Below, piece after piece: positions 20,425-38,395 of a stretch of 64,000 nucleotides of DNA. Origin of the DNA: Alphaproteobacteria bacterium (GTDB taxonomy: Bacteria > Pseudomonadota > Alphaproteobacteria > CACIAM-22H2); NCBI GenBank assembly GCA_035506575.1, contig DATJPD010000082.1:18566-82565 (forward strand), read 5' to 3'. The notes under the pieces are model-generated. The model did no database searches. It saw only the letters and a program-made list of their open reading frames with translations, and was not told the origin of the DNA. Within the stretch, counting starts at the first letter, position 1. Each line of letters opens with the position of its first letter. Position numbers and translations under genes: made by a program.

Positions 20425-21204
20425 TCAGACCACCTCAAATTCCATGAGCTGGATCGGCGCCTGGAAATAGGCGCGGCGGAAAGAGTCCTGGTTCGCGTAT
20501 CTGCTCTGCGGCAGCCGCTTGTATCCCAGCTGCAAACGCAAGGACGGGCGCTCGAACGGATACGGATCGAACCGGACCTTGCGCGGCCCGAGCGCTGTCA
20601 GCCTCAGCGGGATGCCGTCGCGCTTCGAGCTGCCATAGGCGGTGGGTACCGGCTCGATGTAATCGTCACACGGCTCGGCGCAGCAGAAGTACAGTCCAAG
20701 CAGGTCCCACACCTGCAGCAGCCGATAGTTGGTCCATACCTCGTCAGGATCGAACGCTTTGCGCGCCTCCGCCTGACGCTTTTCGTCGCGCTCGATATAC
20801 GCCGCGACCTCGGGCCGGTCGTAGCGCGCGTAATTGTCCGGATGGGTGATCGTGTCGTAACGGTGCCGCCAAAGTCCCGTCCGGTGCATGCTGACGATCA
20901 GCCCGGAATAAGGGTCGATATCGGTCATCCAGTCGCTGCACCACTGGTACGCGTCGAGCTGTTTCTGGCTGAACGGCAACGTGCGGAACTCCGGCGTATC
21001 GCCGCTCTCCAGCAAAATCGGGCTGGTCTCGTAGCGCAGCCAGCCGAAATCATGAAAGGTCGCGGCGCGCACCACCGAATCGTACGGCCTCGGTGCCGCA
21101 AACCGCCCGTTCCCCCAATGCGCCGCCATCTGGCCGACCAGACGGGAGTGATCGGTCTGGCCGATCAGCGTCAGCTGTCCGTCGCTTTCCTTGCGTACGA
21201 TCAC
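20425..21204 (-). CDS. DUF3891-family protein (HD-like metal-binding motifs)
   Basis: This is the C-terminal 260 codons of ORF 20425..21819. GTG start at 21204 is preceded by GGAGGA 7 nt upstream. The sequence begins (M)IVRKESDGQLTLIGQTDHSRLVGQMAAHWGN...AATFHDFGW. It overlaps the upstream gene by 4 nt. Confidence 0.7.
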   Translation of the reverse strand: MIVRKESDGQLTLIGQTDHSRLVGQMAAHWGNGRFAAPRPYDSVVRAATFHDFGWLRYETSPILLESGDTPEFRTLPFSQKQLDAYQWCSDWMTDIDPYSGLIVSMHRTGLWRHRYDTITHPDNYARYDRPEVAAYIERDEKRQAEARKAFDPDEVWTNYRLLQVWDLLGLYFCCAEPCDDYIEPVPTAYGSSKRDGIPLRLTALGPRKVRFDPYPFERPSLRLQLGYKRLPQSRYANQDSFRRAYFQAPIQLMEFEVV

Positions 21205-21914
21205 GGGGATATCCTCCGTTCGTTCGAAGCCGAATTGGGCGCCAGGGCGGCGCACAGCTGCGCCGTACTCGTGACCCAGCCGAGGAAGGTCTCCACCGAG
21301 TAGACGACCGCCTTCTGGACGAAATCCGGTCCCGATTGCTGCGTCGCGTCCTCGACCAGGATGCAGAAATACTCGCGATGGAACGCCTCGCGCAGCGTCG
21401 ATTCCACGCACACGTTGGTGGCGATACCGGTAAAGATCAGGTGCCGGATGTTGCGCGAGCGCAGGATGTTGTCGAGATCGGTGCCGCAAAAGCCGCTGTA
21501 ACGGGCTTTGGGCAGCACGAACTCGTCCGGCCGCGGCACCAGCTCCCCGACCAGTGCGTGGCCCCACGTGCCGTGGGTCAGGATCGTACCGGCGAGCTCG
21601 GGCCGCGCGCGCATCAGCTTCAGCGGGTTGGATTTGTGCCAGTTCGGCGAGTCCGGTCCGCCGGCGTTCCTGAGCGCCGCATCCCAGCCGTTCTGCAGGA
21701 AAACGACGGTCGTGCCCGCCGCGCGCGCGGCATCGAGAACGCGCGCCGTATTGGCGATGACGCCCTTGGCGGGGCCGATATCGCGCCCCATGAGGTCGCG
21801 ATATCCGCGCGGCGAGCAATAATCGTTCTGCATGTCGACGACGACCAGCGCCGTCGTGGCGGCCGAAAATTCGATCGGCTCCGGACGCGCGTTGAGGTGG
21901 AACGAGCTCGGCAT
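21201..21914 (-). CDS. RutB-like isochorismatase-family amidohydrolase (ureidoacrylate amidohydrolase-like)
   Basis: ORF 21201..21953. The start is most likely MPSSFHLNARPEPIEFS at 21914, 4 nt after the upstream stop. There is extended similarity to E. coli RutB as I remember it: ALVVVDMQNDY, FLQNGWD, GGPDSPNWHKSN, LPKARYSGF, and FTGIATNVCVESTLRE with the catalytic Cys. Confidence 0.85.
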   Translation of the reverse strand: MPSSFHLNARPEPIEFSAATTALVVVDMQNDYCSPRGYRDLMGRDIGPAKGVIANTARVLDAARAAGTTVVFLQNGWDAALRNAGGPDSPNWHKSNPLKLMRARPELAGTILTHGTWGHALVGELVPRPDEFVLPKARYSGFCGTDLDNILRSRNIRHLIFTGIATNVCVESTLREAFHREYFCILVEDATQQSGPDFVQKAVVYSVETFLGWVTSTAQLCAALAPNSASNERRISP

Positions 21915-21918
21915 GGGT

Positions 21919-22134
21919 TCACGCGGGGCGATGCGGCGCATCTGGATCGACATGAACGGCGAGCTCGTCGTCCGACGCCCAGACGAGGCCGGCCAGGATC
22001 AGGGGGTCGAGACAGATCGCCATGCCGGTCTGCGCGTCCTCGATGCGCAGGCGTGGCGCGTGGCCCTCGCGGTCCAACGACAGGTGTACCTGCGCGAATT
22101 CGTTCGCCAGCGTCCATGTTTCACGGGTGCTCAT
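21919..22134 (-). CDS. Small hypothetical protein (71 aa)
   Basis: ORF track. A strong SD (GGGAGGAGG) lies just upstream of the ATG and third-position GC is high. It sits between the oxygenase beta subunit and the RutB-like gene. It has a single Cys, so it is not a ferredoxin. Confidence 0.55.
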   Translation of the reverse strand: MSTRETWTLANEFAQVHLSLDREGHAPRLRIEDAQTGMAICLDPLILAGLVWASDDELAVHVDPDAPHRPA

Positions 22135-22149: not shown

Positions 22150-22644
22150 TCAGACAAGATAGGGAATCCCGTCGAGCGGCTCGTCGCATTTCAGCAGCGC
22201 CACTTTCTTTCTCGCGATCTTCCAATCCGCGCCGTTCCGCGCCAGGCGGAACTCGCAGCGCGCCGAATGGATCGCCTGCTTGTGGCGGGTGAGCGCAAAC
22301 AGGACCATGACCGCCGATACCACGAGCGTGCCATCCGCGGCCTCCTCTTCGATCGCGACATTCGAGATCGCCCGGTGCATGCGCGACGGCGGATCCTGCG
22401 CGTGGGCATAGCCGGACTTCAGACGGGCGACGCGGCGCTCCATGTCGGCGCGCGTGTCGTAGATGATCGACACGTGCTGCGCCGGATCGATGTCCCCGTG
22501 GCCGGCCGGCAGCCAATAGATGGCGTCGGCCGTGAACATGTCGAGCCAGTCGTCGAACCGGCCTTCGTCCAGGAGCCGCGCCTCGCGGTACAGGACCTGC
22601 TCGATCGCGGTGCGGTCGATCGCGACGGGGCGCTCAACTCCCAT
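22150..22644 (-). CDS. Aromatic-ring-hydroxylating dioxygenase, beta (small) subunit
   Basis: ORF 22150..22665 trimmed to MGVERPVAIDR. It has the NTF2/SnoaL-like RHO-beta pattern (IEQVLYREARLLDEGRFDDWLDMFTADAIYWLP). It overlaps the alpha subunit stop by 11 nt. Confidence 0.85.
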   Translation of the reverse strand: MGVERPVAIDRTAIEQVLYREARLLDEGRFDDWLDMFTADAIYWLPAGHGDIDPAQHVSIIYDTRADMERRVARLKSGYAHAQDPPSRMHRAISNVAIEEEAADGTLVVSAVMVLFALTRHKQAIHSARCEFRLARNGADWKIARKKVALLKCDEPLDGIPYLV

Positions 22645-23803
22645 GCGCCGCCTCCGGCCGCGCATCGGCAGTCATCAGGTCTTTCCAGCGCCGGTACATG
22701 CCGCGGTGCTGCGTCTCGTCAGTCATCGTGCTGGAGAGATATCCGCCGTGCATCTGCTCGCGCTCCAGTCCGCGCGCGAACACCAGCCATTCGACCGCCG
22801 AGCTCTGCAGACCCTCCTGGGTGCGCTCGAAGATCTCCAGATCGTCGGCGTAGACGACGCCGGCCGGCCCGAACTCGAACTCCTGCCAGCGCATGCGGCT
22901 GAGGTTCAGTTCCTCCGGCACGTTTTGCAGCCGCACGACATTCGTGTAGATCTCCGTCCGGTTGACCGCGACCGGCCTGATCGTGCGGATCTGCGTGCGC
23001 AGCAGGACGAGGTTTGGAAACACGACGACATTGAAGCCGCCGTTGGGCGAACCGCTCGCGGGCAAAGGTCCGGTGTCGCGATGGTCGGTCACCCCGTGGC
23101 CATCCATGTCGACGACCCTGCCCTTCGCCTCGGCGTAGATCTTGAGCGCCTCTTCGGTGAACGTGCTGCGGTGCAGATATTGGACGTGGTACGGGTCGAC
23201 GCCGTTCTCGATCTGGTATTTCCAGTTGCCGTCATAGGCGCATTTCTGCAGGCCCCGGAACACCTCGATCTCACCGGTAGGCGAGACCTTGCAGAATTCA
23301 TCCAGCAGCTCCTTCGTGCCGCCGAGATGCGCATCGAGCGTCGGCCCCTCCGCAGCCATGCTGCCGAAGATGAATCCGCGATGGACAGCAAGCCGGGGCA
23401 CGCGCGCCAGGCTCAGCTCCTCGCGCACGAACGAGGGGCCGTAGCCGCCCGGGTGCGGCACGCCCACGAGCTTGCCGCCGTTGCCGTAGGTCCAGCCGTG
23501 GTAGGCGCAGCGGAAAAACCGCGCGTTGCCGAATTCCTGCTGGCACACGGTGGCGCCGCGGTGGCGGCAGCGGTTGACCAGTGCCGTCACCTCGCCGTCG
23601 CTCTGACGGGCCACGATGATCGGGTGCCTGCCGATGAAGGTCGTCTTGTAATCGCCGGCCTCGCCGATCTCGCTCGTATGGCCAAGATAGACCCAGGAAC
23701 GGCCGAAGATCCGCTCCATCTCGAGATCGAAGATCTCGGGATCTGTGTAGACCGCGCGATGCACCGCGTCGCGCCTGATCAAGCCCGAGAGATCGCGTTC
23801 CAT
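22634..23803 (-). CDS. Rieske [2Fe-2S] non-heme-iron oxygenase, alpha (large) subunit
   Basis: ORF 22634..23836 trimmed to MERDLSG at 23803, with GGAGGAAAG upstream. The Rieske motif is CRHRG...CAYHGW. The mononuclear iron motif is NGVDPYHVQYLH. Confidence 0.9.
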   Translation of the reverse strand: MERDLSGLIRRDAVHRAVYTDPEIFDLEMERIFGRSWVYLGHTSEIGEAGDYKTTFIGRHPIIVARQSDGEVTALVNRCRHRGATVCQQEFGNARFFRCAYHGWTYGNGGKLVGVPHPGGYGPSFVREELSLARVPRLAVHRGFIFGSMAAEGPTLDAHLGGTKELLDEFCKVSPTGEIEVFRGLQKCAYDGNWKYQIENGVDPYHVQYLHRSTFTEEALKIYAEAKGRVVDMDGHGVTDHRDTGPLPASGSPNGGFNVVVFPNLVLLRTQIRTIRPVAVNRTEIYTNVVRLQNVPEELNLSRMRWQEFEFGPAGVVYADDLEIFERTQEGLQSSAVEWLVFARGLEREQMHGGYLSSTMTDETQHRGMYRRWKDLMTADARPEAAHGS

Positions 23804-23813
23804 CTTTCCTCCT

Positions 23814-25235
23814 TCACTGCACGAGGCTCGCGACAATCTCGCGAATGTCGGCGAGCTCGTCGAGGCGACGTACGAGGTCGATGATCTTGTCGAGCCTGTC
23901 GGCCGGCGGCACGATCTTCGCGTAGCCGGCGTTGCTGCGAAATTTCGCCGCGATCTCTTCGAAGGACAGCGGCCGGGTAGGATGGCCGCGCGGCCGCTTC
24001 ACGGTCGCCCCATGTGTCCGTCCGTCGCGCGTGCGGATTTCCAGAACCCCGCCCTCTGGCCCGCCGGGCGGGCTCAAGCCCGGATCGAAGACGTAGGAGA
24101 TGCGCTCGGCCATCGCGAGCGCGGCCGCCTCGGATCGGTGCTTCCCCTTGAAATCGGCCAGCGTGACCGTGCCGTTGACGAGCACCTTGGCCAGGATGAA
24201 TGGCAGGCTGTTCATCGCCGCCGATGACGTGGGTGGACGGCGCCGCACGGCAAGCGGCTCGCTCATCGCACGCCCCCACACGCCGACGCGGACCGTGACG
24301 TCGGCGATGTCGCCCGGCGCGATGTCCTGTGCCGAGATCAACCCCAAGGCTGCCTCGATGAACGGATGCGTGACCAAAGTGCCCGGCCAGAATTTGAACA
24401 CCCGGTTGGCCGAGACGAATGTCTCGCCGAGGCCCGCGCCGAGGGGCCCCCGGTCGTAACGGCCGCCGTAGTGCGCGCCGAACAGGCCGGCCTTGCCGTC
24501 GAACACGGCACCTTGCGCCAGCACGCCGCACTCGGCGAGCAAGGCGCTTTGAACGCCGCCCTGGTTGCAGAAGGCGGCATAGAGCGTCTTGCCCATGCTG
24601 TCGGCGCTATGCACCACGAGCTCTTCGGTCCCGGCCGTCTGCATGAGCGCCAGGCCCAGCGCGCTGTGCATTTTGGCCGGCGTCAGGCCGAGCAGCCGTC
24701 CTGCCGCCGCCGCGGCGCTGAAATATCCGAAGATCTGGGTCGGGATCAGCGCCGGGAACTCATCCGAATCCTGGCCTTGGGCCATCGCCATGGCGAGGCG
24801 ATGCTGGATCTCGCAGCCCACGACGAGTGCCGCGATGAACTCCTGCCCGCTCACGGCCCGTCCCAGGCGCTCCGCTGCCGCGAACGCTGCCGGCACGACA
24901 CATACGGCGACATGTGTCTGCGGGCTCTCCAGGATGTCGTCATAGTCGAGAGCGCGCGCGAGCGTGCCGTTCGCCATCGCGGCCAATGCTGCCGGCACGC
25001 GCCGGCCGGTCGACCAGATCGCCGCCTCGGGTGCACCGCCCTGGGCGGTGACGAACTCGATCACCTCGGCACAGCCTTCGCCGATGCCCGAGGACGCCAG
25101 GGCCACGCCCAACGTATCGAGGACCGTGTTCTTGGCCACCGCCACGATCTCCGCCGGGACGTCCACGAACCGCAGAGACGCGGCGAACTGGCTGAGCGCC
25201 ACGACCGAATCCGGCTGGCTCATGGCGACGTTCAC
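23814..25235 (-). CDS. MmgE/PrpD-family protein (2-methylcitrate dehydratase superfamily)
   Basis: 473 aa. The N-terminus LSQFAASLRFVDVPAEIVAVAKNTVLDTLGVALAS and the segment ALDYDD are typical of the family. Confidence 0.9.
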   Translation of the reverse strand: MNVAMSQPDSVVALSQFAASLRFVDVPAEIVAVAKNTVLDTLGVALASSGIGEGCAEVIEFVTAQGGAPEAAIWSTGRRVPAALAAMANGTLARALDYDDILESPQTHVAVCVVPAAFAAAERLGRAVSGQEFIAALVVGCEIQHRLAMAMAQGQDSDEFPALIPTQIFGYFSAAAAAGRLLGLTPAKMHSALGLALMQTAGTEELVVHSADSMGKTLYAAFCNQGGVQSALLAECGVLAQGAVFDGKAGLFGAHYGGRYDRGPLGAGLGETFVSANRVFKFWPGTLVTHPFIEAALGLISAQDIAPGDIADVTVRVGVWGRAMSEPLAVRRRPPTSSAAMNSLPFILAKVLVNGTVTLADFKGKHRSEAAALAMAERISYVFDPGLSPPGGPEGGVLEIRTRDGRTHGATVKRPRGHPTRPLSFEEIAAKFRSNAGYAKIVPPADRLDKIIDLVRRLDELADIREIVASLVQ

Positions 25236-25254: not shown

Positions 25255-27630
25255 TCACGCCGTGCGCGCCATGGCGTGCCGCACGGCGGTGACGACCTGC
25301 TCCGGCTTGATCGGCGTTGAGTCGAACTCGATGCCGAAAGGCGACAACGCGTCGGCCACGGCATTGGCGATCGTGACCGGTGGCGCGATCGCTCCGCCTT
25401 CGCCAAGCCCTTTCACTCCCAGCGGATTGAGCGGCGACGGTGTTTCCTGGTGCACGAGCCGGATCTCCGGCACATCGCTCGCGGTCGGCACCAGATAGTC
25501 CATGAAGGACACGGCGAGCGGCTGCCCGTCGGCATTGTAGGGCAGCTCCTCGAGCAAGGCGCCGCCGATGCCCTGCACGGTCCCGCCCACCACCTGCCCT
25601 TCCACCAGCAACGGATTCACCGTGACGCCGCAATCGTGCGCGACCGCGTAATCCTCGATCGTAACGCGGCCGGTCTCGATGTCGACATCGACGATCGCCG
25701 CATGCACCGCGTAGGCCCAGGTGACGGTCGGCGGCTCGTAGTAGTACGTGTCCTCGAGCCCGGCATCCATCCCGTCCGGACGGCGCCGGTCCCAGCCCGG
25801 GCGCGCCGCCTGCGCCAGTGCGGCAAGGCTCACCGTCTTGCCCGGCACGCCGACGATGCCAACCCCGCCGGGGCGCAGTTCGAGATCGGCTTCCGCGCAT
25901 TCCAGGAGGCCGGCGGCGATCGCGAACGCCTTCCTGCTCAGGCGGTCGGTCGCGTGGTGAAGGGCTGCCGACACGGTCACCGTGCTGCGGCTGGCGATCG
26001 TGCCGAACCCCATCGGAATGGCCGCCGTGTCGGCCAGCGACACGACGACGTCGTCCGGATGGACCTTCCAGAGGTCCGCCACGATCTGCGCGAAGATCGT
26101 CTCCATGCCCTGCCCTTGCGGACAGGCGCCCGAGGCAACGTGGATCTTGCCCGTCGTCTCGATGCGTACCGTCGCCCCTTCGAACGGTCCGACGCCGGTG
26201 CCCTCGTTGTAGCAGCCGATGCCGAGCCCGAGATAGCGGCCCTGCTGGCGGGCGGCGCGCTGGCGATTGCGAAATGCCGCGAGGCCGCCCAACGCGTCGA
26301 GCGCCTTGTCGAGCGCGCCCGGATAGTCGCCGCCGTCGAACACGATCGGCTCGCCGTCGCGATAGAGGATGCCGTTCTGGTAGGGCATCTCCTCGGGCTT
26401 GACCATGTTCCGCCGCCGGACCTCGGCCGGCTCCAGGCGCAGCTGCCGCGCGATGAGGTCGATCAGCCGTTCCATCGCCTGCACCGCCTCGGGGCGGCCC
26501 GCACCGCGATAGGGCGCGTTCGGCGTCTTCGTCGTGAAGACAAGCGTGCCGCCGACGGCGAGATTGGGAATCTTGTAGGGGCCGGGAAGATGCACGACCG
26601 TGTTGTAGGCGATCGGCAGGCCAAGCGGATTGAACGCGCCCTGGTCCATGATGAAATGATCGCGCAGCGCCAGGATGCGACCCTCGCCATCGAAGCCGAT
26701 CTCCACATCATGGAACTGGTCGCGGGAATGGCAGGCGCTGATCAGATGCTCGTACCGGTCCTCGATCCACTTGACCGGCCGGCCAAGCGCCCGCGAGAGG
26801 AACGCGATGACCTGCTCCTCTGCATAGGGGTGGCCCTTCACGCCAAACCCGCCGCCGACATCGGGAGCGATACAGCGCACGCGCGCCTCCGGCAGGCCGA
26901 GGCATGACGCGACCGCACCGCGCACCATGTGCACCATCTGGGTCGACGACCAGATCGTGATGGACGACGTGCGCGGATCATACTGGCTGAGGATGCCGCG
27001 GCACTCCATCGGCATCGCGGCGTAGCGATGGTGGTAGTAGCGGCGTTTGATCTTGTGGGGCGCCCGCGCCAATGCCGCGTCCACGTCGCCCTTCGCGATC
27101 GCCATCTCGCCGTTCACATTGTGCCCGAGTTGCTCGTGCACCAGCGGCGATGACGGCTTGAGGGCCGCGTCGACGTCGAGGACGGGCGGCAGCGGCTCGA
27201 TGTCGACGACAGCGAGAGCCGCCGCATCCTCGGCTGCGTAACGGCTGTCTGCCACGATGACCGCGAGCGGCTCGCCCACGTAGCGCACCTTCCCTTCGGC
27301 CAGCGGCAGTTGGCGCGGGTTGTCCGATTTGTGGCGGACGACGGCCCGCCATTTCGCGGGCATCGGCACTTCGTGCGGCGGCCCCGGCGGCGCGAGCTTG
27401 CGGAACTCAGCCCCGGCGAGGACATAGGCCACGCCGGGTGCGGCAGCGGCTTCTCTCAGATCCACGGTGCGAATGTTTCCATGCGCCACCGAGCTGCGGA
27501 TGAACGCAGCGTGCAACATGCCCGGCAATGCGAGATCGGCGACATACTGACCCTGACCGGTCAGCAACCGGCGATCCTCGCGCCGCGGCATTCTCTGGCC
27601 GACGAACCGATCGGTTTTGTGCTCGCGCAT
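25255..27630 (-). CDS. Molybdopterin-dependent hydroxylase, large (catalytic) subunit, CoxL/XdhB family
   Basis: 791 aa. The N-terminus is VGQRMPRREDRRLLTGQGQYVAD. The active-site loop APYRGAGRPEA resembles the form-II CoxL signature AYRGAGR. No CoxS/CoxM-type genes are adjacent. Confidence 0.9.
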   Translation of the reverse strand: MREHKTDRFVGQRMPRREDRRLLTGQGQYVADLALPGMLHAAFIRSSVAHGNIRTVDLREAAAAPGVAYVLAGAEFRKLAPPGPPHEVPMPAKWRAVVRHKSDNPRQLPLAEGKVRYVGEPLAVIVADSRYAAEDAAALAVVDIEPLPPVLDVDAALKPSSPLVHEQLGHNVNGEMAIAKGDVDAALARAPHKIKRRYYHHRYAAMPMECRGILSQYDPRTSSITIWSSTQMVHMVRGAVASCLGLPEARVRCIAPDVGGGFGVKGHPYAEEQVIAFLSRALGRPVKWIEDRYEHLISACHSRDQFHDVEIGFDGEGRILALRDHFIMDQGAFNPLGLPIAYNTVVHLPGPYKIPNLAVGGTLVFTTKTPNAPYRGAGRPEAVQAMERLIDLIARQLRLEPAEVRRRNMVKPEEMPYQNGILYRDGEPIVFDGGDYPGALDKALDALGGLAAFRNRQRAARQQGRYLGLGIGCYNEGTGVGPFEGATVRIETTGKIHVASGACPQGQGMETIFAQIVADLWKVHPDDVVVSLADTAAIPMGFGTIASRSTVTVSAALHHATDRLSRKAFAIAAGLLECAEADLELRPGGVGIVGVPGKTVSLAALAQAARPGWDRRRPDGMDAGLEDTYYYEPPTVTWAYAVHAAIVDVDIETGRVTIEDYAVAHDCGVTVNPLLVEGQVVGGTVQGIGGALLEELPYNADGQPLAVSFMDYLVPTASDVPEIRLVHQETPSPLNPLGVKGLGEGGAIAPPVTIANAVADALSPFGIEFDSTPIKPEQVVTAVRHAMARTA

Positions 27631-27789
27631 TTCTTCCCCTCACGGTCCCGGGCCCGCGTCTTCAGCTGTCGCTTATGCAGGTCTGATGCCAGCCGATGGG
27701 TGCGCGTTTCAATGGCATAGATATTGCTCGATCGGCTCATCCGCCGAGTGATTCCGTATTGAACCAATGGTCAATCAAAGGGGGAGCCC
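27631..27789. promoter_or_regulatory. Divergent control region between the Mo-hydroxylase operon and the ABC transporter operon
   Basis: A 159-nt intergenic region, AT-richer than its surroundings. CAATGG-containing elements recur (ttcaatggca and accaatggtca). GGGGAG lies before the SBP ATG. Confidence 0.4.
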
Positions 27790-28779: not shown

Positions 28780-28851
28780 CCCGCCGCGCGGCCGGTGGTG
28801 AGGTTGGACCCGTTTTTGCTCTGATGGCGGAAGGGCGCATCGGAGGGATCC

Positions 28852-31151: not shown

Positions 31152-31278
31152 CGATACCTCCTGGTGTCTAGCTGCGCGCTGAGACAGCAAGAAGTATGCC
31201 GAATGTTTGGGCAGCCGTACCGCTGGTCCGACGCTTGCATCGCACAGCGCTAACGCAACGCGATCGAGGGAGCGAGGA

Positions 31279-32586
31279 ATGACGTTTCCGCAATTCCATC
31301 TCGCCTGGTTCACGAATTTCGCACTCGACGAATGGCGCGAGCCGCTGTCATCGGCCGGCGGCGCGCCGTGGACGGGCGACTTCTATGTCGAGATGGCGAA
31401 GACACTCGAACGGGCGTGCTTCGACTACATCATCCTCGAAGATACCCTGATGGTCCCGGAGGCCTATGGCGGCACGTCCGAACATGCGCTCAAAGGCGGC
31501 ATCCAGGTGCCCAAGCACGACCCGGCCCCGCTTGCAGCACTCATGGGTGCGGCGACCTCGCATGTCGGCATCGTGGCGACCCTGTCGACCTTGGGCTATC
31601 CGCCGTTCCTGCTCGCGCGGCTGTGTGCGACCATAGACCATATCGCCCGCGGCCGGTTCGGCTGGAACATCGTGACCAGCGGCGAGAACATCGCAGCCCA
31701 GAATTTCGGCCTGCCCGAATTGCCGGAGCACGACCTCCGCTATGAGATGGCCGACGAGTACATGGATGTCGTCAATCAGCTCTTCGCGTCGTGGGATCCG
31801 GATGCCGTCGTGCGCGACCGCGCCACCAACACCTATGCGGATTTCCGCAAGGTCCGGCCCGTCCACTTCCAGGGCCGGTACTTCAAGTCGCGCGGGCCGC
31901 TGAACACGGCCCCGATGCCGCAGGGCCGGCCGGCCTACATCCAGGCGGGCGGCTCGCCGCGCGGCCGAGACTTCGCCGCCAAGCACGCGGATTCCATCAT
32001 CGCCTCGAGCAACGGGATCGCGGGCATGAAGGCGTTCCGCGACGACGTGCGAAAGCGCGCCGCGAAATTCGGCCGCAACCCCGACGACATCAAGGTCCTC
32101 TTCCTGTTCGCACCGGTGCTCGGCGAGACCGAGGAGGAGGCAAAGGCCAAGAACGAACGCGGGCTTGCCAGCCAGTGGTTCCAGGACCGGGCGCTCGGGC
32201 TCTACAGCGGCATCACCGACATCGACCTGTCGAAATTCGACCTCGACAAGCCGCTCCCTGAGCTGACGACCAACGGCGAGTCCACCTCGCTCGCCAAGTT
32301 CGCCCAGTTCGGCAGCGGCAAGACGTTGCGGCAGGTGATCATGGAGGGCGGCAAGGGCGGCTGTGTCGATTGCGTGGGTACGCCCGAGCAGGTGGCCGAC
32401 CAGATGGCCGACATCATGCAGCAGGTGGGCGGTGACGGCTTCCTCATCAAGCACCCGTTCAACCTCATCAACCGCCGCTACATCCTCGAGGTCGCCGAGG
32501 GCCTCGTGCCGGCGCTGCAGCGCCGCGGCCTGGTGCGCATGCGCTACACCAAGCCGACGTTGCGCGAGACCCTCTGCGAGTTCTGA
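31279..32586 (+). CDS. LLM-class flavin-dependent monooxygenase, NtaA/SnaA/DszA family
   Basis: ORF 31207..32586 trimmed to MTFPQFHLAWFTNF at 31279. The segment ATIDHIARGRFGWNIVTS is typical of group C FMN monooxygenases. Confidence 0.9.
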   Translation: MTFPQFHLAWFTNFALDEWREPLSSAGGAPWTGDFYVEMAKTLERACFDYIILEDTLMVPEAYGGTSEHALKGGIQVPKHDPAPLAALMGAATSHVGIVATLSTLGYPPFLLARLCATIDHIARGRFGWNIVTSGENIAAQNFGLPELPEHDLRYEMADEYMDVVNQLFASWDPDAVVRDRATNTYADFRKVRPVHFQGRYFKSRGPLNTAPMPQGRPAYIQAGGSPRGRDFAAKHADSIIASSNGIAGMKAFRDDVRKRAAKFGRNPDDIKVLFLFAPVLGETEEEAKAKNERGLASQWFQDRALGLYSGITDIDLSKFDLDKPLPELTTNGESTSLAKFAQFGSGKTLRQVIMEGGKGGCVDCVGTPEQVADQMADIMQQVGGDGFLIKHPFNLINRRYILEVAEGLVPALQRRGLVRMRYTKPTLRETLCEF

Positions 32587-32596: not shown

Positions 32597-32626
32597 CGTC
32601 ATGCCCCGGGAAGCCGGGGCATGACG
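32597..32626. repeat. REP-like palindromic hairpin (CGTCATGCCCCGG gaag CCGGGGCATGACG) between convergent genes
   Basis: A 13-bp perfect stem with a 4-nt loop, lying between the LLM stop (32586) and the SBP2 stop (32637). It shares its arm sequence with the element at ~10648-10680. Confidence 0.65.
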
Positions 32627-32636: not shown

Positions 32637-33629
32637 CTACGACTTCGGGACGAAGGACCGGTCGACGATCCCGACCGGGTCGATCTTGTCGAGCGGATAG
32701 TTCTGCGCCTTGGCCACCCACTCCCAGGTCTTCTTCAGGAGCTCGGGGTCGAAGGTCCACATGCCGTATTTCTGGCTGACCTCGTTCTTGATCAGCAAGG
32801 CCGCGTTCTTCCACTCAGCGAGGCCATCCTCGGCCGGAATGTCGGGCAGCATGGCGTGGTTGTCCTTGGCGGCGGCCTCGGGATTGGCGAAGGTGAAGTT
32901 GATCGCTTTCGTGTAGGCGCGCAGAAAGCGGGCCACGACCTGCGGCTGCTCCTTGATCACTTTGTCGGTCGCCATCAGCGACAGGCCATATCCCTCGAGC
33001 CCGTATTCCGACCACGGCAGCATGACGAGCTCCTTGCCGTTCTGGCTGAGCACGCGCTCGGCACTCGCCTTGTTCGTCACCCAGCTGATCGTCGCGTCGG
33101 TTTTTCCGGTCGCCAGCATCCCGAACAGCGTGTTGGGATCGGCCTTGATCAGCGTGATCTTGCCGACATCGAGACCGTTGGACTGCGCGAACACCGGCCA
33201 GATCACGTTGGAGGAGGTGAACGGCGCCGTCGCGACCGTCTTGCCGATGAGATCCTTGAGCGTCGTGATGCCGCTGCCCTTGATGGTGAAGATCGCGTCC
33301 GGCTGCTTGACGTAGATCGACGCGATCGCCTTCACGGGCACGTTGCTTTGCGCGACGGCCCCCATGAGCGCCCCGACGGCCGCGGCACCGAAGTCCGCCG
33401 TGCCCGTTCCCAGCTTCGTGATCGTGTCGGTGCTGCCGCGCCCGATGCGCACCGTGACCTCCAGGCCTTCGTCCTTGAAGAAGCCCTCCTTCTCGGCCAC
33501 GTACGGATACGGCTCTTCGCCCGACGGGATCCAGTCGAGGAGGAACGTGACCTTGTCCAACGCATGCGCGGCCGTGCTCGAGAAGAACAGGGCCGACGCT
33601 GCGAGCACCGCAAGGATCGCTTGTCTCAT
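32637..33629 (-). CDS. ABC transporter substrate-binding protein, NMT1/THI5 family, paralog 2
   Basis: 330 aa with a signal peptide (MRQAILAVLAASALFFSSTAAHA). By eye it is about 60-65% identical at protein level to the 27790..28779 product. Confidence 0.85.
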   Translation of the reverse strand: MRQAILAVLAASALFFSSTAAHALDKVTFLLDWIPSGEEPYPYVAEKEGFFKDEGLEVTVRIGRGSTDTITKLGTGTADFGAAAVGALMGAVAQSNVPVKAIASIYVKQPDAIFTIKGSGITTLKDLIGKTVATAPFTSSNVIWPVFAQSNGLDVGKITLIKADPNTLFGMLATGKTDATISWVTNKASAERVLSQNGKELVMLPWSEYGLEGYGLSLMATDKVIKEQPQVVARFLRAYTKAINFTFANPEAAAKDNHAMLPDIPAEDGLAEWKNAALLIKNEVSQKYGMWTFDPELLKKTWEWVAKAQNYPLDKIDPVGIVDRSFVPKS

Positions 33630-33792
33630 AACGCATCTCTCCGCTTAAGAATTGAGCACGCCGCAAAAGGTTTGAACGGCAGATGCCGCGGCGGTGGCTC
33701 GAAGCGCCGCGCGTGCGAAGAAATCTGCAAGCCATATGCCATCGCGAAATGCGTCGCGGCGCGCCGACGTCACGCGCTATAGTTCCGGCACG

Positions 33793-34287
33793 ATGCCGTT
33801 CTCAAAACTCGATCACGAGCGCTTTCTCCGCCGCACCTTCGACGTCGCGCGTGACGCGCGCGCCAATGGACAGCATCCCTTCGGCGCGATCCTCGTGGGG
33901 CCGGATGGCTCGATCCTGATGGAGCAGGGCAACGGCTATTTCCCGGACCGGGACATGACCGCACACGCCGAGCGCCTGCTGATGACACGCGCCTCGAAGA
34001 CCTATCCTCCGGCGGTGCTGCGGGAGTGCACGCTCTACAGCTCCGCCGAGCCGTGCGCGATGTGCGCCGGTGCGATCTATTGGGCCGGGGTCGGCCGCGT
34101 CGTGTTCGGCGCCAGCGAATTTCAGCTCAAGTCGATGACCGGCAATCATCCGGAAAACCCGACCCTCGATCTCCCCTGCACCACGGTGTTCGCCGCGGGC
34201 CAGCGCGCGGTCGAGGTGATCGGTCCCCTTCTCGCCGATGAGGCCCTGGCGCTCCACCAGGGTGCCTGGGACGCGCCGCAGGCCTAA
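33793..34287 (+). CDS. CDA-fold (CMP/dCMP-type zinc) nucleoside/nucleobase deaminase 2
   Basis: ORF 33694..34287 trimmed to MPFSKLDHERFLRR at 33793. The zinc motifs are HAE and AEPCAMC. It is clearly different in sequence from deaminase 1. Confidence 0.85.
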   Translation: MPFSKLDHERFLRRTFDVARDARANGQHPFGAILVGPDGSILMEQGNGYFPDRDMTAHAERLLMTRASKTYPPAVLRECTLYSSAEPCAMCAGAIYWAGVGRVVFGASEFQLKSMTGNHPENPTLDLPCTTVFAAGQRAVEVIGPLLADEALALHQGAWDAPQA

Positions 34288-35321
34288 AGGCTCAGCATGC
34301 GCTCGGCCGCGGGCGGCAGGAACTTGTCCGTGTAGACGTCCTCGGGCCGCTGCTTCTCCGGAAGCTTGAACACCTCGGTCAAGGTGTCGATGTTCCGCTG
34401 CAGGCGAACGGCGTCCACGTGGCTGACGCCGTTCTGCTCGACATTCGGCCGTTTGAGCGCCAGGTCGATCATCAGCTCGAGGCGGCCGACTTCGATGCCG
34501 GTATTCAGCAGCGGATCATGTTTCTTCAGCGATTCGACCGCCGCAACCTTGTCGGCGATCATCGCCTTGAGGCCGCGCACGGTCACGCGCAGGAACTTCC
34601 GCACCAGATCCGGATTCTTCTCGGCGAACTCGGCGCGGACCACCACGCCGCTGCCATACAGATCGACGCCGTAATCCGCGAAATTCATCACCGACAGCTC
34701 GTCGCGCCGGACGCCGAGCTGCTCGAGATCCGGAATCGAGGTCGTCACGTAGCCGGCCAGCGCGTCGGCCTGGCGCTTGGCGAACTGCTCCGCCTGCAGC
34801 TGGATGCTCACGGTTTGCCAGATGACTTTGCTCTCATCGACGCCGTTCGCCCGCGCAAACGCAGGAAACATCGTCCGTCCGCCGGTGGTCAGCGGGGCGA
34901 CGATGGTCTTCCCTTCCAGGTCCTTGGGCGTGGTGATGCCGCTGCCCTTGCGCGTGATGATGGTGCCGGGAAAAACGTCGTAGATCACGAACACGCTCAG
35001 CAGCTTGCGCTCCGGGCTCTTGGCGTTGAACAGCATGACCGTGTTCATGTCGCCGAACAGAAAGTCATAGTTCCCGCCCGCGATCGCCTGCGCGTTCTCG
35101 AGCCCACCATAGCCGCGGTCGATCGTCACGGACAGCCCTTCGTCCTGGAAATAGCCGCGCGCATCCGCGAGGCTCCAGATCGACTGCGGCGACTGCCAGA
35201 CCCAGTCGAGCCGCAGCTTGATCGGCGTGAGAGGCTGAGCGCGTGCAGCCGAGCCCGCGCCGAGGAACAGCGGCGCCGCCAGCGCGCCGCGCAATACCGA
35301 CCGTCGATCGAGTCCGCTCAT
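34284..35321 (-). CDS. ABC transporter substrate-binding protein, NMT1/THI5 family, divergent paralog 3 with a Tat-like signal
   Basis: ORF 34284..35348 trimmed to MSGLDRRSVLRGALAAPLFLGAGSAARA at 35321, with GAGGGGG upstream. Its stop overlaps the stop of deaminase 2; the two genes are convergent. Confidence 0.8.
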   Translation of the reverse strand: MSGLDRRSVLRGALAAPLFLGAGSAARAQPLTPIKLRLDWVWQSPQSIWSLADARGYFQDEGLSVTIDRGYGGLENAQAIAGGNYDFLFGDMNTVMLFNAKSPERKLLSVFVIYDVFPGTIITRKGSGITTPKDLEGKTIVAPLTTGGRTMFPAFARANGVDESKVIWQTVSIQLQAEQFAKRQADALAGYVTTSIPDLEQLGVRRDELSVMNFADYGVDLYGSGVVVRAEFAEKNPDLVRKFLRVTVRGLKAMIADKVAAVESLKKHDPLLNTGIEVGRLELMIDLALKRPNVEQNGVSHVDAVRLQRNIDTLTEVFKLPEKQRPEDVYTDKFLPPAAERMLSL

Positions 35322-35357: not shown

Positions 35358-36860
35358 TCAGGTCAACCGCGCAAACCGGTTCACATCCATCGGCCGACCC
35401 AACGCCTCTGTGATCAGCGGCTGGAACACCGCGCGCTCGCCGCGCGTCGCGCTCAGGTGCTGCGCGTTGTTCTGTTCATCCTGCGTCGCGAATTCCTGCG
35501 CCGACGCATAGATCTCGTCCTCGTCCACCTTCGTGCAGCGGCCGGCTTTGACGACGACCTCGCCGGCCACGAGCACCGTGTCGATGGATTGCCCGGTCTC
35601 GTACATCACGAGATGGTTCCACACATTGCCGAGCGGCCGGTGGATGTCGCTGTCGAGCCTGAGGATCGCAAGATCGGCATGGGCGCCGACCTCGATGGCG
35701 CCGAGCTTCCCGGGCTCGCCCAGCACGGCGGCCCCGCCGACGGTCGCGAGCCCGAGGGCCTGACGCGAGGTCATCCAGCGGTCGCAGTCCGGTTGGCTGA
35801 TGCGGCTCAACAGCATGGAAAACTTGGCCTGCTCGAACATGTTGATCGCATTGCTGCTGCAGCCATCGGACCCCACCGCCACCCGGACGCCCGCCTCCAG
35901 AAGCCGTGTCGTCGGCTGGAGGCCGCTGCCCAGCACGAGATTGCTCACCGGGTTGTTCACGACATTCACGCGCTTCTCGGCCGCGAGCTCGATGTCGCGG
36001 TCCGTGCACCAGACAAAATGCGCGAGCGAGCTCTTCTCGTTGATGAGGCCAAAGCGGTCGAGATAGGCGACGAAGCTACCGCCGATCCCGGGCGCCATCA
36101 GTGCCTGGGTCTTGGCCTCCAGGAGATGGGTGTGCAGCCCCATGCGGTGCCGCGCCGCGAATTCGCCGGTCTTTTCCAGAAGTGCCGGCGTGCACCGCTG
36201 CGGCCCGTCCACGCCGAGCATGAGCCGCACGCGCTCGCCGCCCCGGGTCTCGGCCGCAACCTCCTCCATCATGACGAAGTACTCGTCGGGTGATTTGGGA
36301 GTCATGCGCACCCAGCGGTCCTGGATGTCCTGAGGCAGGCGCGCCGCCTCGATCGGCAAGGAATCGATGTAGCGGCGGTCCTCGAACATGGGCGCCACGG
36401 CAGCCCGGATGCCGATGTCCCGGTACGCCTTGAAGACGGTCAGCACCGCCTCCGTGGACGGCATCGCCCCGTGACGGAAATGATCCACCACGCCGGTCAC
36501 GCCGTGCTTGAGCATCTCGATCGCGTGCAGCAAGGCCCCCACCCGCACGATCTCAAGCGGCCGGTGCGAGCGCCGCGACATCGCCTCCATGACGAACAGG
36601 TCGAGCGGCGCCCCGCCGATCTTCCCGCGCTGCAGCGCCGAGGCGGAATGCGAATGCGAGTTGATCAGCCCGGGAAGGACCAGCGCGTTCGAAAACGCCA
36701 GCGTCTCGAACGTGCCCCCTGCGAAGGGGGCTGCCTCGCCTTTCGGCGCGATCGCCGCGATGCGCCCGCCCGCGATCCACAGGTCCATGTCGTCGAGCAG
36801 ATCGTCGCTGCCGCCGAGCGGCGCGATCTTCGCCCCCGTGATCCGCAGCTTGGAGCCCAC
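35358..36860 (-). CDS. Amidohydrolase-superfamily enzyme (chlorohydrolase/guanine-deaminase/SsnA-like subgroup)
   Basis: This is the C-terminal 500 codons of ORF 35358..37949. A GTG start at 36860 lies 5 nt after the upstream stop. The metal motifs are GLINSHSH and HTHLLE, plus GSDG and a late aspartate region. Confidence 0.85.
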   Translation of the reverse strand: MGSKLRITGAKIAPLGGSDDLLDDMDLWIAGGRIAAIAPKGEAAPFAGGTFETLAFSNALVLPGLINSHSHSASALQRGKIGGAPLDLFVMEAMSRRSHRPLEIVRVGALLHAIEMLKHGVTGVVDHFRHGAMPSTEAVLTVFKAYRDIGIRAAVAPMFEDRRYIDSLPIEAARLPQDIQDRWVRMTPKSPDEYFVMMEEVAAETRGGERVRLMLGVDGPQRCTPALLEKTGEFAARHRMGLHTHLLEAKTQALMAPGIGGSFVAYLDRFGLINEKSSLAHFVWCTDRDIELAAEKRVNVVNNPVSNLVLGSGLQPTTRLLEAGVRVAVGSDGCSSNAINMFEQAKFSMLLSRISQPDCDRWMTSRQALGLATVGGAAVLGEPGKLGAIEVGAHADLAILRLDSDIHRPLGNVWNHLVMYETGQSIDTVLVAGEVVVKAGRCTKVDEDEIYASAQEFATQDEQNNAQHLSATRGERAVFQPLITEALGRPMDVNRFARLT

Positions 36861-36865
36861 GGCGG

Positions 36866-38395
36866 TCAGGCGGCCACCATGGCGGAGAAGCCCGCGACCT
36901 CGCCGAGACGTGCAAGGGCGAACGCACGGTCGAGCCGTACGAGAAAGAGCCCCACCTGCATCGGCAGACGGTGATCGAGAAAGCAGTCGTAGATCGTATC
37001 CAGGGCCTCGGCCAACGGCAGCCCGTGTGCGCAGCGTGCCCGTTCGACCGCGGCGCGCAGATCGAGCGCCTTGCGCACGCTCACCTTCTGCGGCTCGGGG
37101 GTCGCCCAGTCGATGTCGCCGAGGTTCGACGCGAGCGCCTCGACGAAGGCCAGCTTGCGCGCCGGCAGGTTTTTTGCCGCCTCCGGCACATGGTCCTCGG
37201 CGACCTGCAGGAACCAGTTCCGCTCGTCGGTCGCTCGCGCGAGGTCGCAATCGATCCGGCGGCCGTTCTTGAAGGCCATGACCGGGACGCACCGCGCGTC
37301 CGCGACCCGCGTGCGCATAACGCAATCCTCGAGCTCGAACCGGCCGGCCTCGAGCCGGAACACGGTGATATCGGCGGGAAGCCCGGGACGCAGACTGCCC
37401 GCGCGGTCCGAGAGCGACAGGTGGCGCGCCGGATTTGCGGTCACGCAGGCGATGACGTCGTGCAGCGACAGGCCGAGGCGCAGGCAGATCGACATCGTAT
37501 GCGACAGCGAGAACGTCGGCCGCAGGACGTTGAACTGCTGCAGATCGGAGCTGATGAAGTGCGGCCGCAGGCCCTGGGCCATGGTCTTCTCCGCGACGTC
37601 CCAGGAAAATCCGTAGCTGCCGAAGCCGATGTCGAACAGCGCGCCGCGCGCCGCCGCGTCCTGCACGCATGGCAGGATCCTGCCCGCCCGATCCAGGACC
37701 TGCCCCTGCGGACACCCGTTGTAGACATGGGTGATGATGTCGCCGGCGCCGACGCAGCTCACCGCGTATTCGAACGGATCGATGAAACCCGGCCAGGCGC
37801 GGTTCTCGCCGATGTGCAGATAAAACGGCATGCCCAGCGCCGAGGCGACGTTGCGCGCGATCTCGATCGTCACCTGTCCGCGCTGGCTGTACGCCGCCGC
37901 CTTGATATAGCGAGCGACACCGGGATGCGCCTCGATCCAGTCGGACCACAGCGAGATCGGAATCGCCGCTATGTCGCGGATATCGTCGTCGCCGGGCTCA
38001 TAATCGAAGCCGACGATGCCCATCGGCAGGACGTAGGGGCCGGCATAGACATCCGTGACCAGCCGCCCCTTGGTCAGCGCCTCGAACTCGTCGAGCGTCA
38101 GGATGCCCGGGCCGCCGGCATCGATGAAACTGGTCACACCCTGGCAAATGCCGATGCTGTCGGGGTCGCCGAAGCCGAGTGCCCCCATCGCATGCACATG
38201 AATATCGATCCAGCCTGGCGACAGATAGTTGCCGGAGAGATCGACGGTCTCCGCGCCCGAAGGGACTTCGATCCCAGTGCCGACGGCGGCGATCTTGCCG
38301 GCAGCGATCAGGACGTCGGCAGGCCCGTCGATCCGTCGGGCGGGATCGATGACATGCGCACCCTTTAAGAACACCGCGTTCTCATATTTGCTCAT
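36866..38395 (-). CDS. Amidohydrolase-superfamily enzyme (dihydroorotase/deacylase-like) with a ~130-aa C-terminal extension
   Basis: ORF 36866..38455 trimmed to MSKYENAVFLKGAHVIDP at 38395. The HxH motif is GWIDIHVHA. The C-terminal helical tail after ~residue 380 has no family I recognise. Confidence 0.8.
   Translation of the reverse strand: MSKYENAVFLKGAHVIDPARRIDGPADVLIAAGKIAAVGTGIEVPSGAETVDLSGNYLSPGWIDIHVHAMGALGFGDPDSIGICQGVTSFIDAGGPGILTLDEFEALTKGRLVTDVYAGPYVLPMGIVGFDYEPGDDDIRDIAAIPISLWSDWIEAHPGVARYIKAAAYSQRGQVTIEIARNVASALGMPFYLHIGENRAWPGFIDPFEYAVSCVGAGDIITHVYNGCPQGQVLDRAGRILPCVQDAAARGALFDIGFGSYGFSWDVAEKTMAQGLRPHFISSDLQQFNVLRPTFSLSHTMSICLRLGLSLHDVIACVTANPARHLSLSDRAGSLRPGLPADITVFRLEAGRFELEDCVMRTRVADARCVPVMAFKNGRRIDCDLARATDERNWFLQVAEDHVPEAAKNLPARKLAFVEALASNLGDIDWATPEPQKVSVRKALDLRAAVERARCAHGLPLAEALDTIYDCFLDHRLPMQVGLFLVRLDRAFALARLGEVAGFSAMVAA

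Follow-up and report, generated by a model that had tools for sequence, protein, structure and literature searches.

A candidate nitrogen-scavenging supercluster for aminated N-heteroaromatic compounds with predicted sigma-54 promoters in an alphaproteobacterium

Soils hold large pools of heterocyclic nitrogen in the form of nucleobases, vitamin fragments, pteridines and azaarene pollutants, and how microbes set this nitrogen free is understood only in part. The Rut system, encoded by the NtrC- and sigma-54-dependent operon rutABCDEFG of E. coli, attacks the ring with a flavin-N5-peroxide. Other pathways combine a molybdenum (Mo) hydroxylase with a Rieske oxygenase, as do Qor and 2-oxoquinoline 8-monooxygenase. 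In riboflavin catabolism, a xanthine-oxidase-type enzyme (LumJ) followed by a Rieske dioxygenase (LumABCD) opens the quinoxaline ring (PMC12746152). Genes downstream of xanthine (NMT1-motif) riboswitches encode NMT1/THI5-like substrate-binding proteins (SBPs), tauA-type ABC components, hcaE-type Rieske oxygenases, PRK12393-like amidohydrolases and tadA-like deaminases, which were proposed to act on purines, the functions themselves not being established (Yu & Breaker 2020, PMC7373994). The present analysis concerns 17 genes at positions 20425-38395 (here termed the island) of a 64-kb window, the whole stretch of DNA analysed, from the alphaproteobacterial contig DATJPD010000082.1. With a probability of roughly 0.55, this region is a nitrogen-scavenging supercluster for aminated N-heteroaromatics of the pyrimidine, purine or pteridine type, composed of at least three recurrent modules that are mostly transcribed with sigma-54. 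Uncharacterised catabolic clusters are common and nothing in this region breaks a rule; the cluster is most likely of a familiar kind, N-heterocycle uptake and catabolism under nitrogen control, with a gene combination not found in the literature searched.

Open reading frames (ORFs) were called with guidance from the GC content of third codon positions (GC3), and their products were assigned to families by Pfam and NCBIfam scans. All 17 genes and families listed by a first-pass annotation, which had been made from the sequence alone, were found in place, and every one of its enzyme assignments survived searches with hidden Markov models and of the PDB. Its amidohydrolase motifs are intact (HSHS in G16, HVH in G17) and its flanking genes are as described: an O-acetylhomoserine sulfhydrylase gene (19048-20421) ends at 20421 on the 5' side, and a CPA1 Na+/H+ antiporter gene (38508-40124) ends at 38508 on the 3' side. 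Its count of at least six transcription units is revised to seven or eight. The genes are:

G1, 20425-21204, minus strand: DUF3891 protein of 259 aa (PF13030, 144 bits), last gene of unit 1
G2, 21201-21953, minus strand: RutB-like cysteine amidohydrolase of the isochorismatase fold (TIGR03614, PDB)
G3, 21919-22134, minus strand: conserved 71-aa protein directly after the Rieske beta gene, no Pfam or NCBIfam match
G4, 22150-22644, minus strand: Rieske oxygenase beta subunit (Ring_hydroxyl_B), syntenic in all core loci
G5, 22634-23803, minus strand: Rieske non-haem-iron oxygenase alpha subunit (Pfam Rieske and Ring_hydroxyl_A)
G6, 23814-25235, minus strand: MmgE/PrpD-fold enzyme of 473 aa (Pfam), first gene of the four-gene core
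G7, 25255-27630, minus strand: CoxL/QorL-like molybdenum hydroxylase large subunit of 791 aa (Pfam), first gene of unit 1
G8, 27790-28779, plus strand: NMT1/THI5-type periplasmic binding protein 1 (PF09084) with a Sec signal, first gene of unit 2 (G8 to G10)
G9, 29077-29865, plus strand: NitT/TauT-type ABC ATPase (ABC_tran)
G10, about 29810/29933-30661, plus strand: permease (BPD_transp_1)
G11, 30675-31151, minus strand: CDA-fold zinc deaminase 1 (HSE...PCPMC; dCMP_cyt_deam_1, MafB19-deam)
G12, 31279-32586, plus strand: NtaA/DmoA-family FMNH2-dependent monooxygenase (TIGR03860)
G13, 32637-33629, minus strand: NMT1-type binding protein 2, a Sec-exported paralogue 63% identical to G8
G14, 33793-34287, plus strand: CDA-fold zinc deaminase 2 (HAE...PCAMC)
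G15, 34284-35321, minus strand: NMT1-type binding protein 3 with a twin-arginine signal, 28% identical to G8
G16, 35358-36860, minus strand: amidohydrolase like TRZ/ATZ enzymes and 8-oxoguanine deaminase (Amidohydro_1; motif HSHS), part of module B
G17, 36866-38395, minus strand: dihydroorotase-like amidohydrolase of the EF_0837/PRK09237 type (motif HVH), first gene of the operon G17-G16-G15

For comparison, 21 loci from GTDB species representatives were retrieved by a G6-homologue profile and searched by tblastn with all window proteins, and metagenome contigs were scanned with G16 for module B loci. Related loci are numbered with the prefix L. The four-gene core referred to below comprises the genes of the PrpD-like enzyme, Rieske alpha, Rieske beta and the 71-aa protein (G6 to G3).

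Several features of the island recall Rut. G2 matches RutB and keeps its triad, most units have predicted sigma-54 promoters, G12 is a luciferase-family FMN monooxygenase, and a RidA/RutC-family gene lies by the core in L006; the shared logic would be the release of ring nitrogen under nitrogen limitation. However, RutA is not present in the island. G12 scores 80 bits on the TIGR03612 equivalog against a cut-off of 498 and falls instead in the NtaA/DmoA subfamily, and the RutC, RutD, RutE, RutF and RutG families are not among the 17 products. Ring attack would here be performed by a Mo hydroxylase and a Rieske oxygenase rather than by a flavin-N5-peroxide.

The gene sets associated with xanthine riboswitches contain the same families as the island, which is one argument for a purine-specific guild that imports and deaminates purines or damaged purines (guanine, 8-oxoguanine, isoguanine, adenine) prior to Mo-hydroxylase and Rieske oxidation as in Klebsiella HpxDE. 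Further arguments are the matches of G16 to 8-oxoguanine and guanine deaminase models, the CDA-fold guanine and guanosine deaminases among the structural neighbours of G11, and a DIOX_N/2-oxoglutarate (2OG)-Fe(II) oxygenase gene after DUF3891 in L023, a family that also occurs in PMC7373994. Nonetheless, restriction to purines is unlikely. No xanthine (NMT1-motif) riboswitch was found by Rfam in the window or in 14 related loci, where predicted sigma-54 control takes its place, and the PrpD-like, RutB-like, DUF3891 and CoxL families are absent from the PMC7373994 gene list. Genes for uricase, 5-hydroxyisourate (HIU) hydrolase, 2-oxo-4-hydroxy-4-carboxy-5-ureidoimidazoline (OHCU) decarboxylase and the allantoin pathway were not found in the island or the scanned flanks, and RutB-like and PrpD-like enzymes have no role in known purine catabolism. 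Riboswitch control in general was rejected for the island and the 14 related loci on the Rfam results, which list no element in the island at the gathering threshold or at E <= 5.

With Qor and Lum the island shares a Mo hydroxylase whose nearest relative is QorL, and the order in which a Mo hydroxylase precedes a Rieske oxygenase has a precedent in the quinoxaline case. The Qor and Lum clusters, however, encode iron-sulfur and FAD subunits, a ferredoxin and a reductase, none of which is encoded in this 64 kb. The compound serves there as a carbon source, with catechol-cleavage genes present, and neither system has a PrpD-fold or a RutB-like enzyme. The absence of CoxS, CoxM, ferredoxin and Rieske reductase genes, which the first-pass annotation had reported for the island, extends to the whole window: six-frame motif scans detected no CoxS motif, no plant-type ferredoxin motif and no second Rieske motif anywhere in the 64 kb, and hidden genes for CoxS/CoxM, a ferredoxin, a reductase or an enhancer-binding protein were rejected on the strength of such scans. 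The riboflavin/lumichrome pathway itself was rejected as a match, its gene set having a fused xanthine oxidase in addition to P450, catechol-cleavage and thiamine diphosphate (ThDP) enzymes.

Two further systems share single elements with the island. For s-triazine (Atz/Trz) and biuret degradation, these are the TRZ/ATZ-family G16, a CDA-fold deaminase that could be an ammeline or guanine deaminase, and an isochorismatase-fold hydrolase as in BiuH. Cyanuric acid hydrolase (AtzD/TrzD) and allophanate hydrolase are, however, absent from the island, and G2, far closer to RutB, reaches 139 of the 370 bits that the BiuH model requires. For thiamine-pyrimidine salvage (ThiXYZ/TenA), the shared elements are the NMT1/ThiY-family SBPs and a 77% identical DUF3891 orthologue beside a TenA-SBP-ABC operon in L048, whereas the window is without TenA, ThiD and a thiamine pyrophosphate (TPP) riboswitch and its content is catabolic rather than directed to salvage.

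The locus lacks at least one defining feature of each of Rut, CO dehydrogenase (CODH), the xanthine-riboswitch regulon, cis-aconitate decarboxylase (CAD)/PrpD and an island of horizontal gene transfer. With regard to the last, island here means no more than a variable catabolic gene cluster. GC content is flat across the window (0.64-0.69, without a composition break), integrase and transposase families are absent from the island products and the Pfam-scanned flanking genes, and no tRNA borders the island, the sole tRNA of the window lying at 46526. The flanking genes are of the housekeeping kind (rplM-rpsI, argC, plsX, enoyl-CoA hydratase and others; Pfam, 20 flanking genes). The stretch is not mobile, and there is no indication of its horizontal insertion. 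In agreement with the first-pass annotation, the literature searched (DUF3891; MmgE with Rieske; PrpD with dioxygenase and N-heterocyclic; RutB with Rieske) yielded neither a characterised pathway of this composition nor a description of an orthologous cluster.

The feature common to most units is a predicted sigma-54 promoter. Both strands of the window (128 kb) were searched with the pattern TGG-N8-TTGC and scored with a weighted consensus. There are eight exact matches in the window, compared with 6.6 expected from shuffles, and five of them lie within the ~0.96 kb of island intergenic DNA, where ~0.1 is expected (P ~1e-7). All five are on the strand of the downstream gene, 47-100 nt upstream of the start codon, and the three best weighted-consensus sites of the whole window are all in the island. 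The exact and weaker sites are:

27713-27728, plus strand: TGGCATAGATATTGCT, predicted sigma-54 -24/-12 promoter directed at G8, 77 nt upstream; exact, among the top three scores
28805-28820, plus strand: TGGACCCGTTTTTGCT, sigma-54-type site directed at G9-G10; exact
31224-31239, plus strand: TGGTCCGACGCTTGCA, sigma-54-type site directed at G12; exact
33726-33741, minus strand: TGGCATATGGCTTGCA, predicted sigma-54 promoter directed at G13; exact, with an identical site in L030
38451-38466, minus strand: TGGCCCGCCGTTTGCA, predicted sigma-54 promoter directed at G17-G16-G15; exact, kept in L030 and L031
27676-27691, minus strand: TGGCATCAGACCTGCA, weaker sigma-54-like site, uncertainly directed at the G7 operon; scores 25/29
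31186-31201, minus strand: CGGCATACTTCTTGCT, weaker sigma-54-like site directed at G11; weighted consensus

The sites recur in related loci. An equivalent of TGGCATAGATATTGCT is located upstream of the 74% identical G8 orthologue in L025, sites precede the G12 orthologues in L001, L032 and L033, and sites like CGGCATACTTCTTGCT precede the G11 orthologues in L030 and L032. Taken together, sites matching those of the island are found in front of orthologues in L001, L025, L030-L033, L040, L044 and L047-L049. Five units, possibly seven, carry sigma-54 promoters as predicted here. The earlier description of the island as regulator-less therefore holds for its products, none of which contains a helix-turn-helix domain (Pfam/NCBIfam), but not for its promoters.

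The presence of these promoters implies an enhancer-binding protein encoded outside the window; none with the GAFTGA motif is encoded within the 64 kb (six-frame motif scan). By analogy with the rut operon, the activator is most plausibly the general nitrogen regulator NtrC and the inducing signal most likely nitrogen limitation. In the divergent promoter regions at 27676-27728 and 31186-31239, two sigma-54-like sites stand back to back. Their -24 elements are separated by 22-23 nt, so that the intergenic DNA has no space for an upstream activator site of the conventional kind. A search of the promoter regions for a shared operator returned only recurrent GC-rich 10-mers of low information.

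Near-perfect sigma-54 promoters of the form TGGCACG-N4-TTGCT are present in related loci at 17424 in L004, 14016 in L022, 13632 in L006, 998 in L029 and ~17350 in L008, L009 and L011. In L022, L006 and L029 they precede, by 60-80 nt, a LysR-type regulator gene at the flank of the four-gene core. A nitrogen-controlled cascade is suggested for those loci, in which sigma-54 would drive LysR and LysR in turn the catabolic operon. The window is without the LysR gene that flanks the core elsewhere.

The four-gene core is present in ~20 genomes, its carriers including Bradyrhizobium, Beijerinckia, Azospirillum, Pigmentiphaga and many alphaproteobacterial metagenome-assembled genomes, and it is nearly always located near an NMT1-type ABC importer, with G8-G10 components 45-74% identical in more than ten loci. 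Across the loci from GTDB representatives, identities are 59-73% for Rieske alpha, 45-53% for the small protein and 45-64% for the importer components. The complete operon of seven genes, which includes those of the RutB-like and DUF3891 proteins, was found only in the window's own lineage at an identity of at least 85% (L023, the relative with the DIOX_N/2OG-Fe(II) oxygenase gene). In L025, near-orthologues of units 1 and 2 and of the G14 deaminase (61-81% identity) stand in shuffled order, comprising CDA2 (66%), PrpD, DUF3891, SBP1 (74%), CoxL (73%), alpha, beta, the small protein, permease and ATPase. In L006, genes for CoxL (79%), CoxM, CoxS, a RidA/RutC-family protein and a 285-aa protein precede the core and a LysR gene lies behind it, while L029 has LysR and CoxL (66%), and L001 has a G12 orthologue (67%) directly behind the core.

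The other half of the island shows a similar pattern. Relatives at 80-95% identity (L030, L031) keep the gene order from the antiporter and G17 through to G9. On distant contigs, G16-G15 form a module of their own, module B, in which ATPase and permease genes face those of the amidohydrolase, SBP, CoxM, CoxS and CoxL. The module-B CoxL is 27-31% identical to G7 and follows G15 orthologues in L032, L033, L036, L039, L041 and L044 (12699-16311); the CoxM and CoxS genes of this second Mo hydroxylase were confirmed in L044 only, and the window lineage is without the enzyme. G16-G15 occur with NtaA (69%) in L032 and L033, in the former also with CDA1 (77%), and with a 68% identical CoxL (G7) orthologue in L044. 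DUF3891 orthologues of 63-77% identity are placed divergently beside other NMT1-type ABC operons (L048 10001-10780; L049 10001-10783), of which one carries TenA (L048, with the 77% orthologue) and another an isochorismatase.

Judged by these neighbourhoods, the region is a guild of interchangeable modules rather than one fixed pathway. The N-heterocycle reading of the first-pass annotation is supported by the matches of G2 to RutB, G7 to QorL and KdhL and G5 to IadD, and the supercluster proposal also draws on the TRZ/ATZ, 8-oxoguanine-deaminase and PRK12393 matches of G16, the ThiY- and THI5-like binding proteins, the RidA/RutC-family, CoxM and CoxS genes of L006, the gene sets of PMC7373994 and the quinoxaline precedent. 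The single fixed system that the annotation implied is not supported. Units 1 and 2 do recur in other genomes together with CoxL, the NtaA-type monooxygenase and a CDA deaminase. The seven-gene operon as such is confined, among the loci found, to relatives of at least 85% identity. A linear pathway, in which all 17 gene products would act in sequence on one substrate and the three SBPs would bind this substrate and its extracellular breakdown products, accords with the tight packing in one 18-kb block, the order kept from the antiporter to G9 in L030 and L031, the sigma-54 signature common to most units and the single cluster of L025, which mixes units 1 and 2 with a CDA deaminase. It is nevertheless improbable: in distant genomes the seven-gene operon, G16-G15, DUF3891 and NtaA each have other partners and their own ABC or CoxMSL genes, and two same-fold deaminases, two amidohydrolases and three SBPs exceed the needs of one substrate.

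The converse possibility is that the core is an ordinary aromatic-carboxylate dioxygenase system located beside independent, nitrogen-regulated scavenging genes. Bradyrhizobium-type loci combine the core with genes for a 505-511-aa amidohydrolase, a VanA-like oxygenase, GST, VOC, an alpha/beta-hydrolase and LysR, and sometimes a reductase or UbiD, and the cores of Bradyrhizobium, Azospirillum and Beijerinckia stand among VanA-like oxygenase, reductase, GST, VOC dioxygenase, alpha/beta-hydrolase and UbiD genes; the core is, in addition, without strong sigma-54 sites. This explanation is doubtful in view of the NMT1-type ABC genes (45-74%) that accompany the core in most loci of both cluster types, the recurrence of CoxL, RidA, CDA deaminase, DUF3891 and NtaA genes beside it, and the translational coupling of the RutB-like and DUF3891 genes to the core in this lineage (4-nt overlap).

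For the nitrogen-scavenging supercluster, gene functions predicted by homology suggest the following scheme, in which the order of steps is likewise a prediction. The three NMT1/ThiY-family SBPs would capture related ring compounds, G8 and G13 one type and the Tat-exported G15 another, and all three would deliver to the single translocator G9-G10. Exocyclic amino groups would be released as ammonia by the CDA-fold enzymes G11 and G14 and by the TRZ/ATZ-type G16. G7, using CoxM and CoxS encoded elsewhere, would add an oxo group next to a ring nitrogen, and the Rieske oxygenase G5/G4, with G3 and a reductase encoded elsewhere, would oxygenate and destabilise the ring. The resulting ureido or amide acid could then be cleaved by G2 to carbamate or ammonia, and the carboxylated carbon skeleton dehydrated, decarboxylated or isomerised by G6. 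G17, of the cyclic-amidohydrolase type, G12 and G1 may act on side branches or related substrates, and expression would depend on the enhancer-binding protein from outside the window.

Several observations weigh against this scheme. No NtrC-type upstream palindromes were found above background. Upstream of the core operon, the window shows only a weak sigma-54-like site and the related loci show none; in the latter a LysR gene accompanies the core instead, and unit 1 may therefore be regulated differently from the other units. The partner genes in Bradyrhizobium-type loci look like those of ordinary aromatic-acid catabolism. In most genomes the modules are found separately, and they may thus act on different compounds. 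The score of G2 on the RutB equivalog TIGR03614 is 318 bits, below the cut-off of 378, and the xanthine riboswitch is missing from the window and the 14 related loci.

The enzymes of unit 1 were compared with known structures and equivalog models. The three domains Ald_Xan_dh_C, MoCoBD_1 and MoCoBD_2 are full length in G7 (Pfam), which has the quinoline 2-oxidoreductase large subunit (QorL) as its best PDB match with 541 bits, followed by the 6-hydroxypseudooxynicotine dehydrogenase large subunit (KdhL) with 508 bits. Its motifs include GGGFG, Gln231, a PYRGAGR loop and GLGEGG with the catalytic Glu, and point to a complete Mo-cofactor-binding large subunit of the xanthine oxidase family. Form I CoxL of aerobic CODH was rejected as an assignment. 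The CODH loop AYxCSFR is not present in G7, which has PYRGAGR in its place, the scores are below both CODH cut-offs (758 vs 950 and 522 vs 991; NCBIfam), and coxM and coxS are not adjacent. G7 has orthologues of 66-79% identity close to the core in L003, L006, L025, L029 and L044. CoxM and CoxS adjoin the orthologue in L006 and probably also that in L003, which contains a CoxS motif. Because orthologues adjoin CoxM and CoxS genes in other genomes, the partners of G7 are, by analogy, almost certainly encoded elsewhere in this genome.

G6 comprises both MmgE/PrpD domains, with 181 bits for the N domain and 81 bits for the C domain (Pfam), and has 778 homologues at E <= 1e-20. It is syntenic with the alpha, beta and small protein genes in ~20 loci. 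Its nearest PDB entries, CAD and iminodisuccinate (IDS) epimerase, are matched at only ~100 bits. Alignment with human CAD was examined at the residues that we take to form the active site (D93, T97, H103, H159, K207, K272 and H277). Equivalents of D93, H103, K207 and K272 are kept, those of T97, H159 and H277 are not. With this partial residue set and a PrpD equivalog score of 40 bits (cut-off 950), G6 was assigned neither as CAD nor as the PrpD equivalog.

The Rieske motif CRH...CAYH and the 2-His-1-carboxylate motif D-x2-H-x4-H are intact in G5, whose orthologues in other loci are 59-94% identical. Together with the beta subunit G4, both motifs are those expected of an alpha3beta3 Rieske oxygenase. 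The nearest solved structure is the indole-3-acetate oxygenase IadD (210 bits), which converts indole-3-acetate to 2-oxindole-3-acetate. The iad auxin operon was not accepted as a match, IadD being merely the nearest solved Rieske alpha subunit and PrpD/MmgE being unmentioned in the main text of the iad paper. A dedicated reductase or ferredoxin for G5/G4 was not detected in the 64-kb window, in which neither a ferredoxin motif nor another Rieske motif occurs. Next to the core of L026, from Azospirillum, lies a Fer2-type reductase gene.

The 71-aa ORF G3 is a real gene because it is conserved at 45-89% identity in more than 15 loci. Its orthologues always directly follow the Rieske beta gene (L001-L029), and the family numbers ~490 clusters (50% identity) at E <= 1e-3 without a Pfam model. 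The protein is acidic, with the motif NEFAQVRL...D..GN.PRL.[IV]EDL...LD...LA.L...DP[DN], and its predicted structure consists of four strands and a helix (pLDDT 72). A ferredoxin was rejected, as there is no conserved Cys/His cluster, and the only fold matches are weak and PUR-repeat-like (E ~0.2). G3 may be an unrecognised accessory subunit of its Rieske oxygenase clade.

Alignment of G2 with E. coli RutB (8bkd) gives 286 bits over 223 residues, with ~58% identity as counted by eye from the alignment, and the Asp/Lys/Cys triad is retained. Similarity at this level favours an intermediate with a uracil-like ureido-acrylate moiety. G1, which overlaps G2 by 4 nt, has 884 homologues. Its AlphaFold model is confident (pLDDT 91, pTM 0.90) and shows a helical domain and a beta-sheet domain, for which no PDB neighbour was found by Foldseek (best E 0.15, TM < 0.25) or by a profile search of PDB sequences. 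The invariant residues H19, H51-D52, H107 and D167 resemble those of a metal site. The arrangement H...HD...H...D suggested an HD-domain enzyme, an assignment that neither the PDB profile search nor Foldseek supported.

Among the remaining genes, G8 has orthologues of 44-74% identity near the core in many loci, and the structures nearest to the binding proteins include ThiY (3ix1) and THI5. G9-G10, the sole translocator genes in the island, have orthologues that are 52-95% identical. Orthologues of G15 are always paired with those of G16 in L030-L047 (56-89% identity). The PDB neighbours of G11 are guanine, guanosine, dC and TadA deaminases, and its 77% orthologue lies near module B in L032. 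The 66% orthologue of G14 lies divergently beside the PrpD-like gene in L025. G12 scores 413 bits on TIGR03860, above the cut-off, and is about equally similar to DmoA, DszA, LadA and the riboflavin lyase RcaE. G16 scores 200 bits on PRK09045 and 130 bits on PRK12393 and has relatives of 60-90% identity in 18 metagenome loci. G17 falls below the cut-off of NF006689 (298 vs 371 bits). Its 125-aa C-terminal extension (36866-37240) has no Pfam match and is kept, within the loci fetched, only in relatives of at least 80% identity.

The four-gene oxygenase core is widespread, uncharacterised and tied to a ThiY-family importer, and the guild of deaminases, amidohydrolases and Mo hydroxylase appears to be under sigma-54 control, a hint that nitrogen starvation is the inducing condition. 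Two function-less families, DUF3891 and that of the 71-aa protein, gain a biochemical context, and with cultured carriers in existence the question of the substrate is directly testable. An unlikely but more specific proposal starts from the conserved set of PrpD-fold enzyme, Rieske alpha/beta, 71-aa protein and NMT1/ThiY-type importer, joined in this lineage by CoxL, the RutB-like hydrolase, DUF3891 and the CDA deaminases. This set would constitute an undescribed oxidative ring-opening pathway for 4-aminopyrimidines, by which soil Alphaproteobacteria would mine ring nitrogen under sigma-54 control; DUF3891 would then represent a novel fold of metal-dependent hydrolases, and the 71-aa protein a novel Rieske accessory subunit. 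Candidate substrates would include the thiamine pyrimidine, as hydroxymethylpyrimidine (HMP), aminomethylpyrimidine or N-formyl-aminomethylpyrimidine (FAMP), or its carboxylate.

A 17.8-kb soil-metagenome contig of the Joint Genome Institute (JGI) is identical in sequence to this DNA, and its independent gene calls agree with those made here, several genes having shorter N-termini. The match assigns the window to a soil bacterium that is uncultured, and the closest named relatives are metagenome-assembled genomes of Alphaproteobacteria. The JGI record also includes a 58-aa ORF at 28852-29028, which was rejected as a gene. It lies in the 297-nt spacer between G8 and the ATPase gene (28780-29076), which is unusually long and carries its own sigma-54-type site. 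Since the ORF is not conserved and has a low GC3 (0.69), the spacer is probably an untranslated leader. One further element was read directly from the sequence:

32598-32625, between the convergent G12 and G13: candidate GC-rich hairpin with a 12-bp stem, a likely bidirectional terminator

Just beyond the sulfhydrylase gene, positions 17228-19048 of the minus strand encode a 606-aa dCache-PAS-PAS_7 sensor protein without a recognisable output domain, the sole signal-sensing protein near the cluster. The housekeeping flanks also contain two genes unrelated to the cluster, one for a Rap1a-like protein (type VI immunity; 45683-46171, minus strand) and one for a 451-aa pentapeptide-repeat protein (15360-16715, plus strand).

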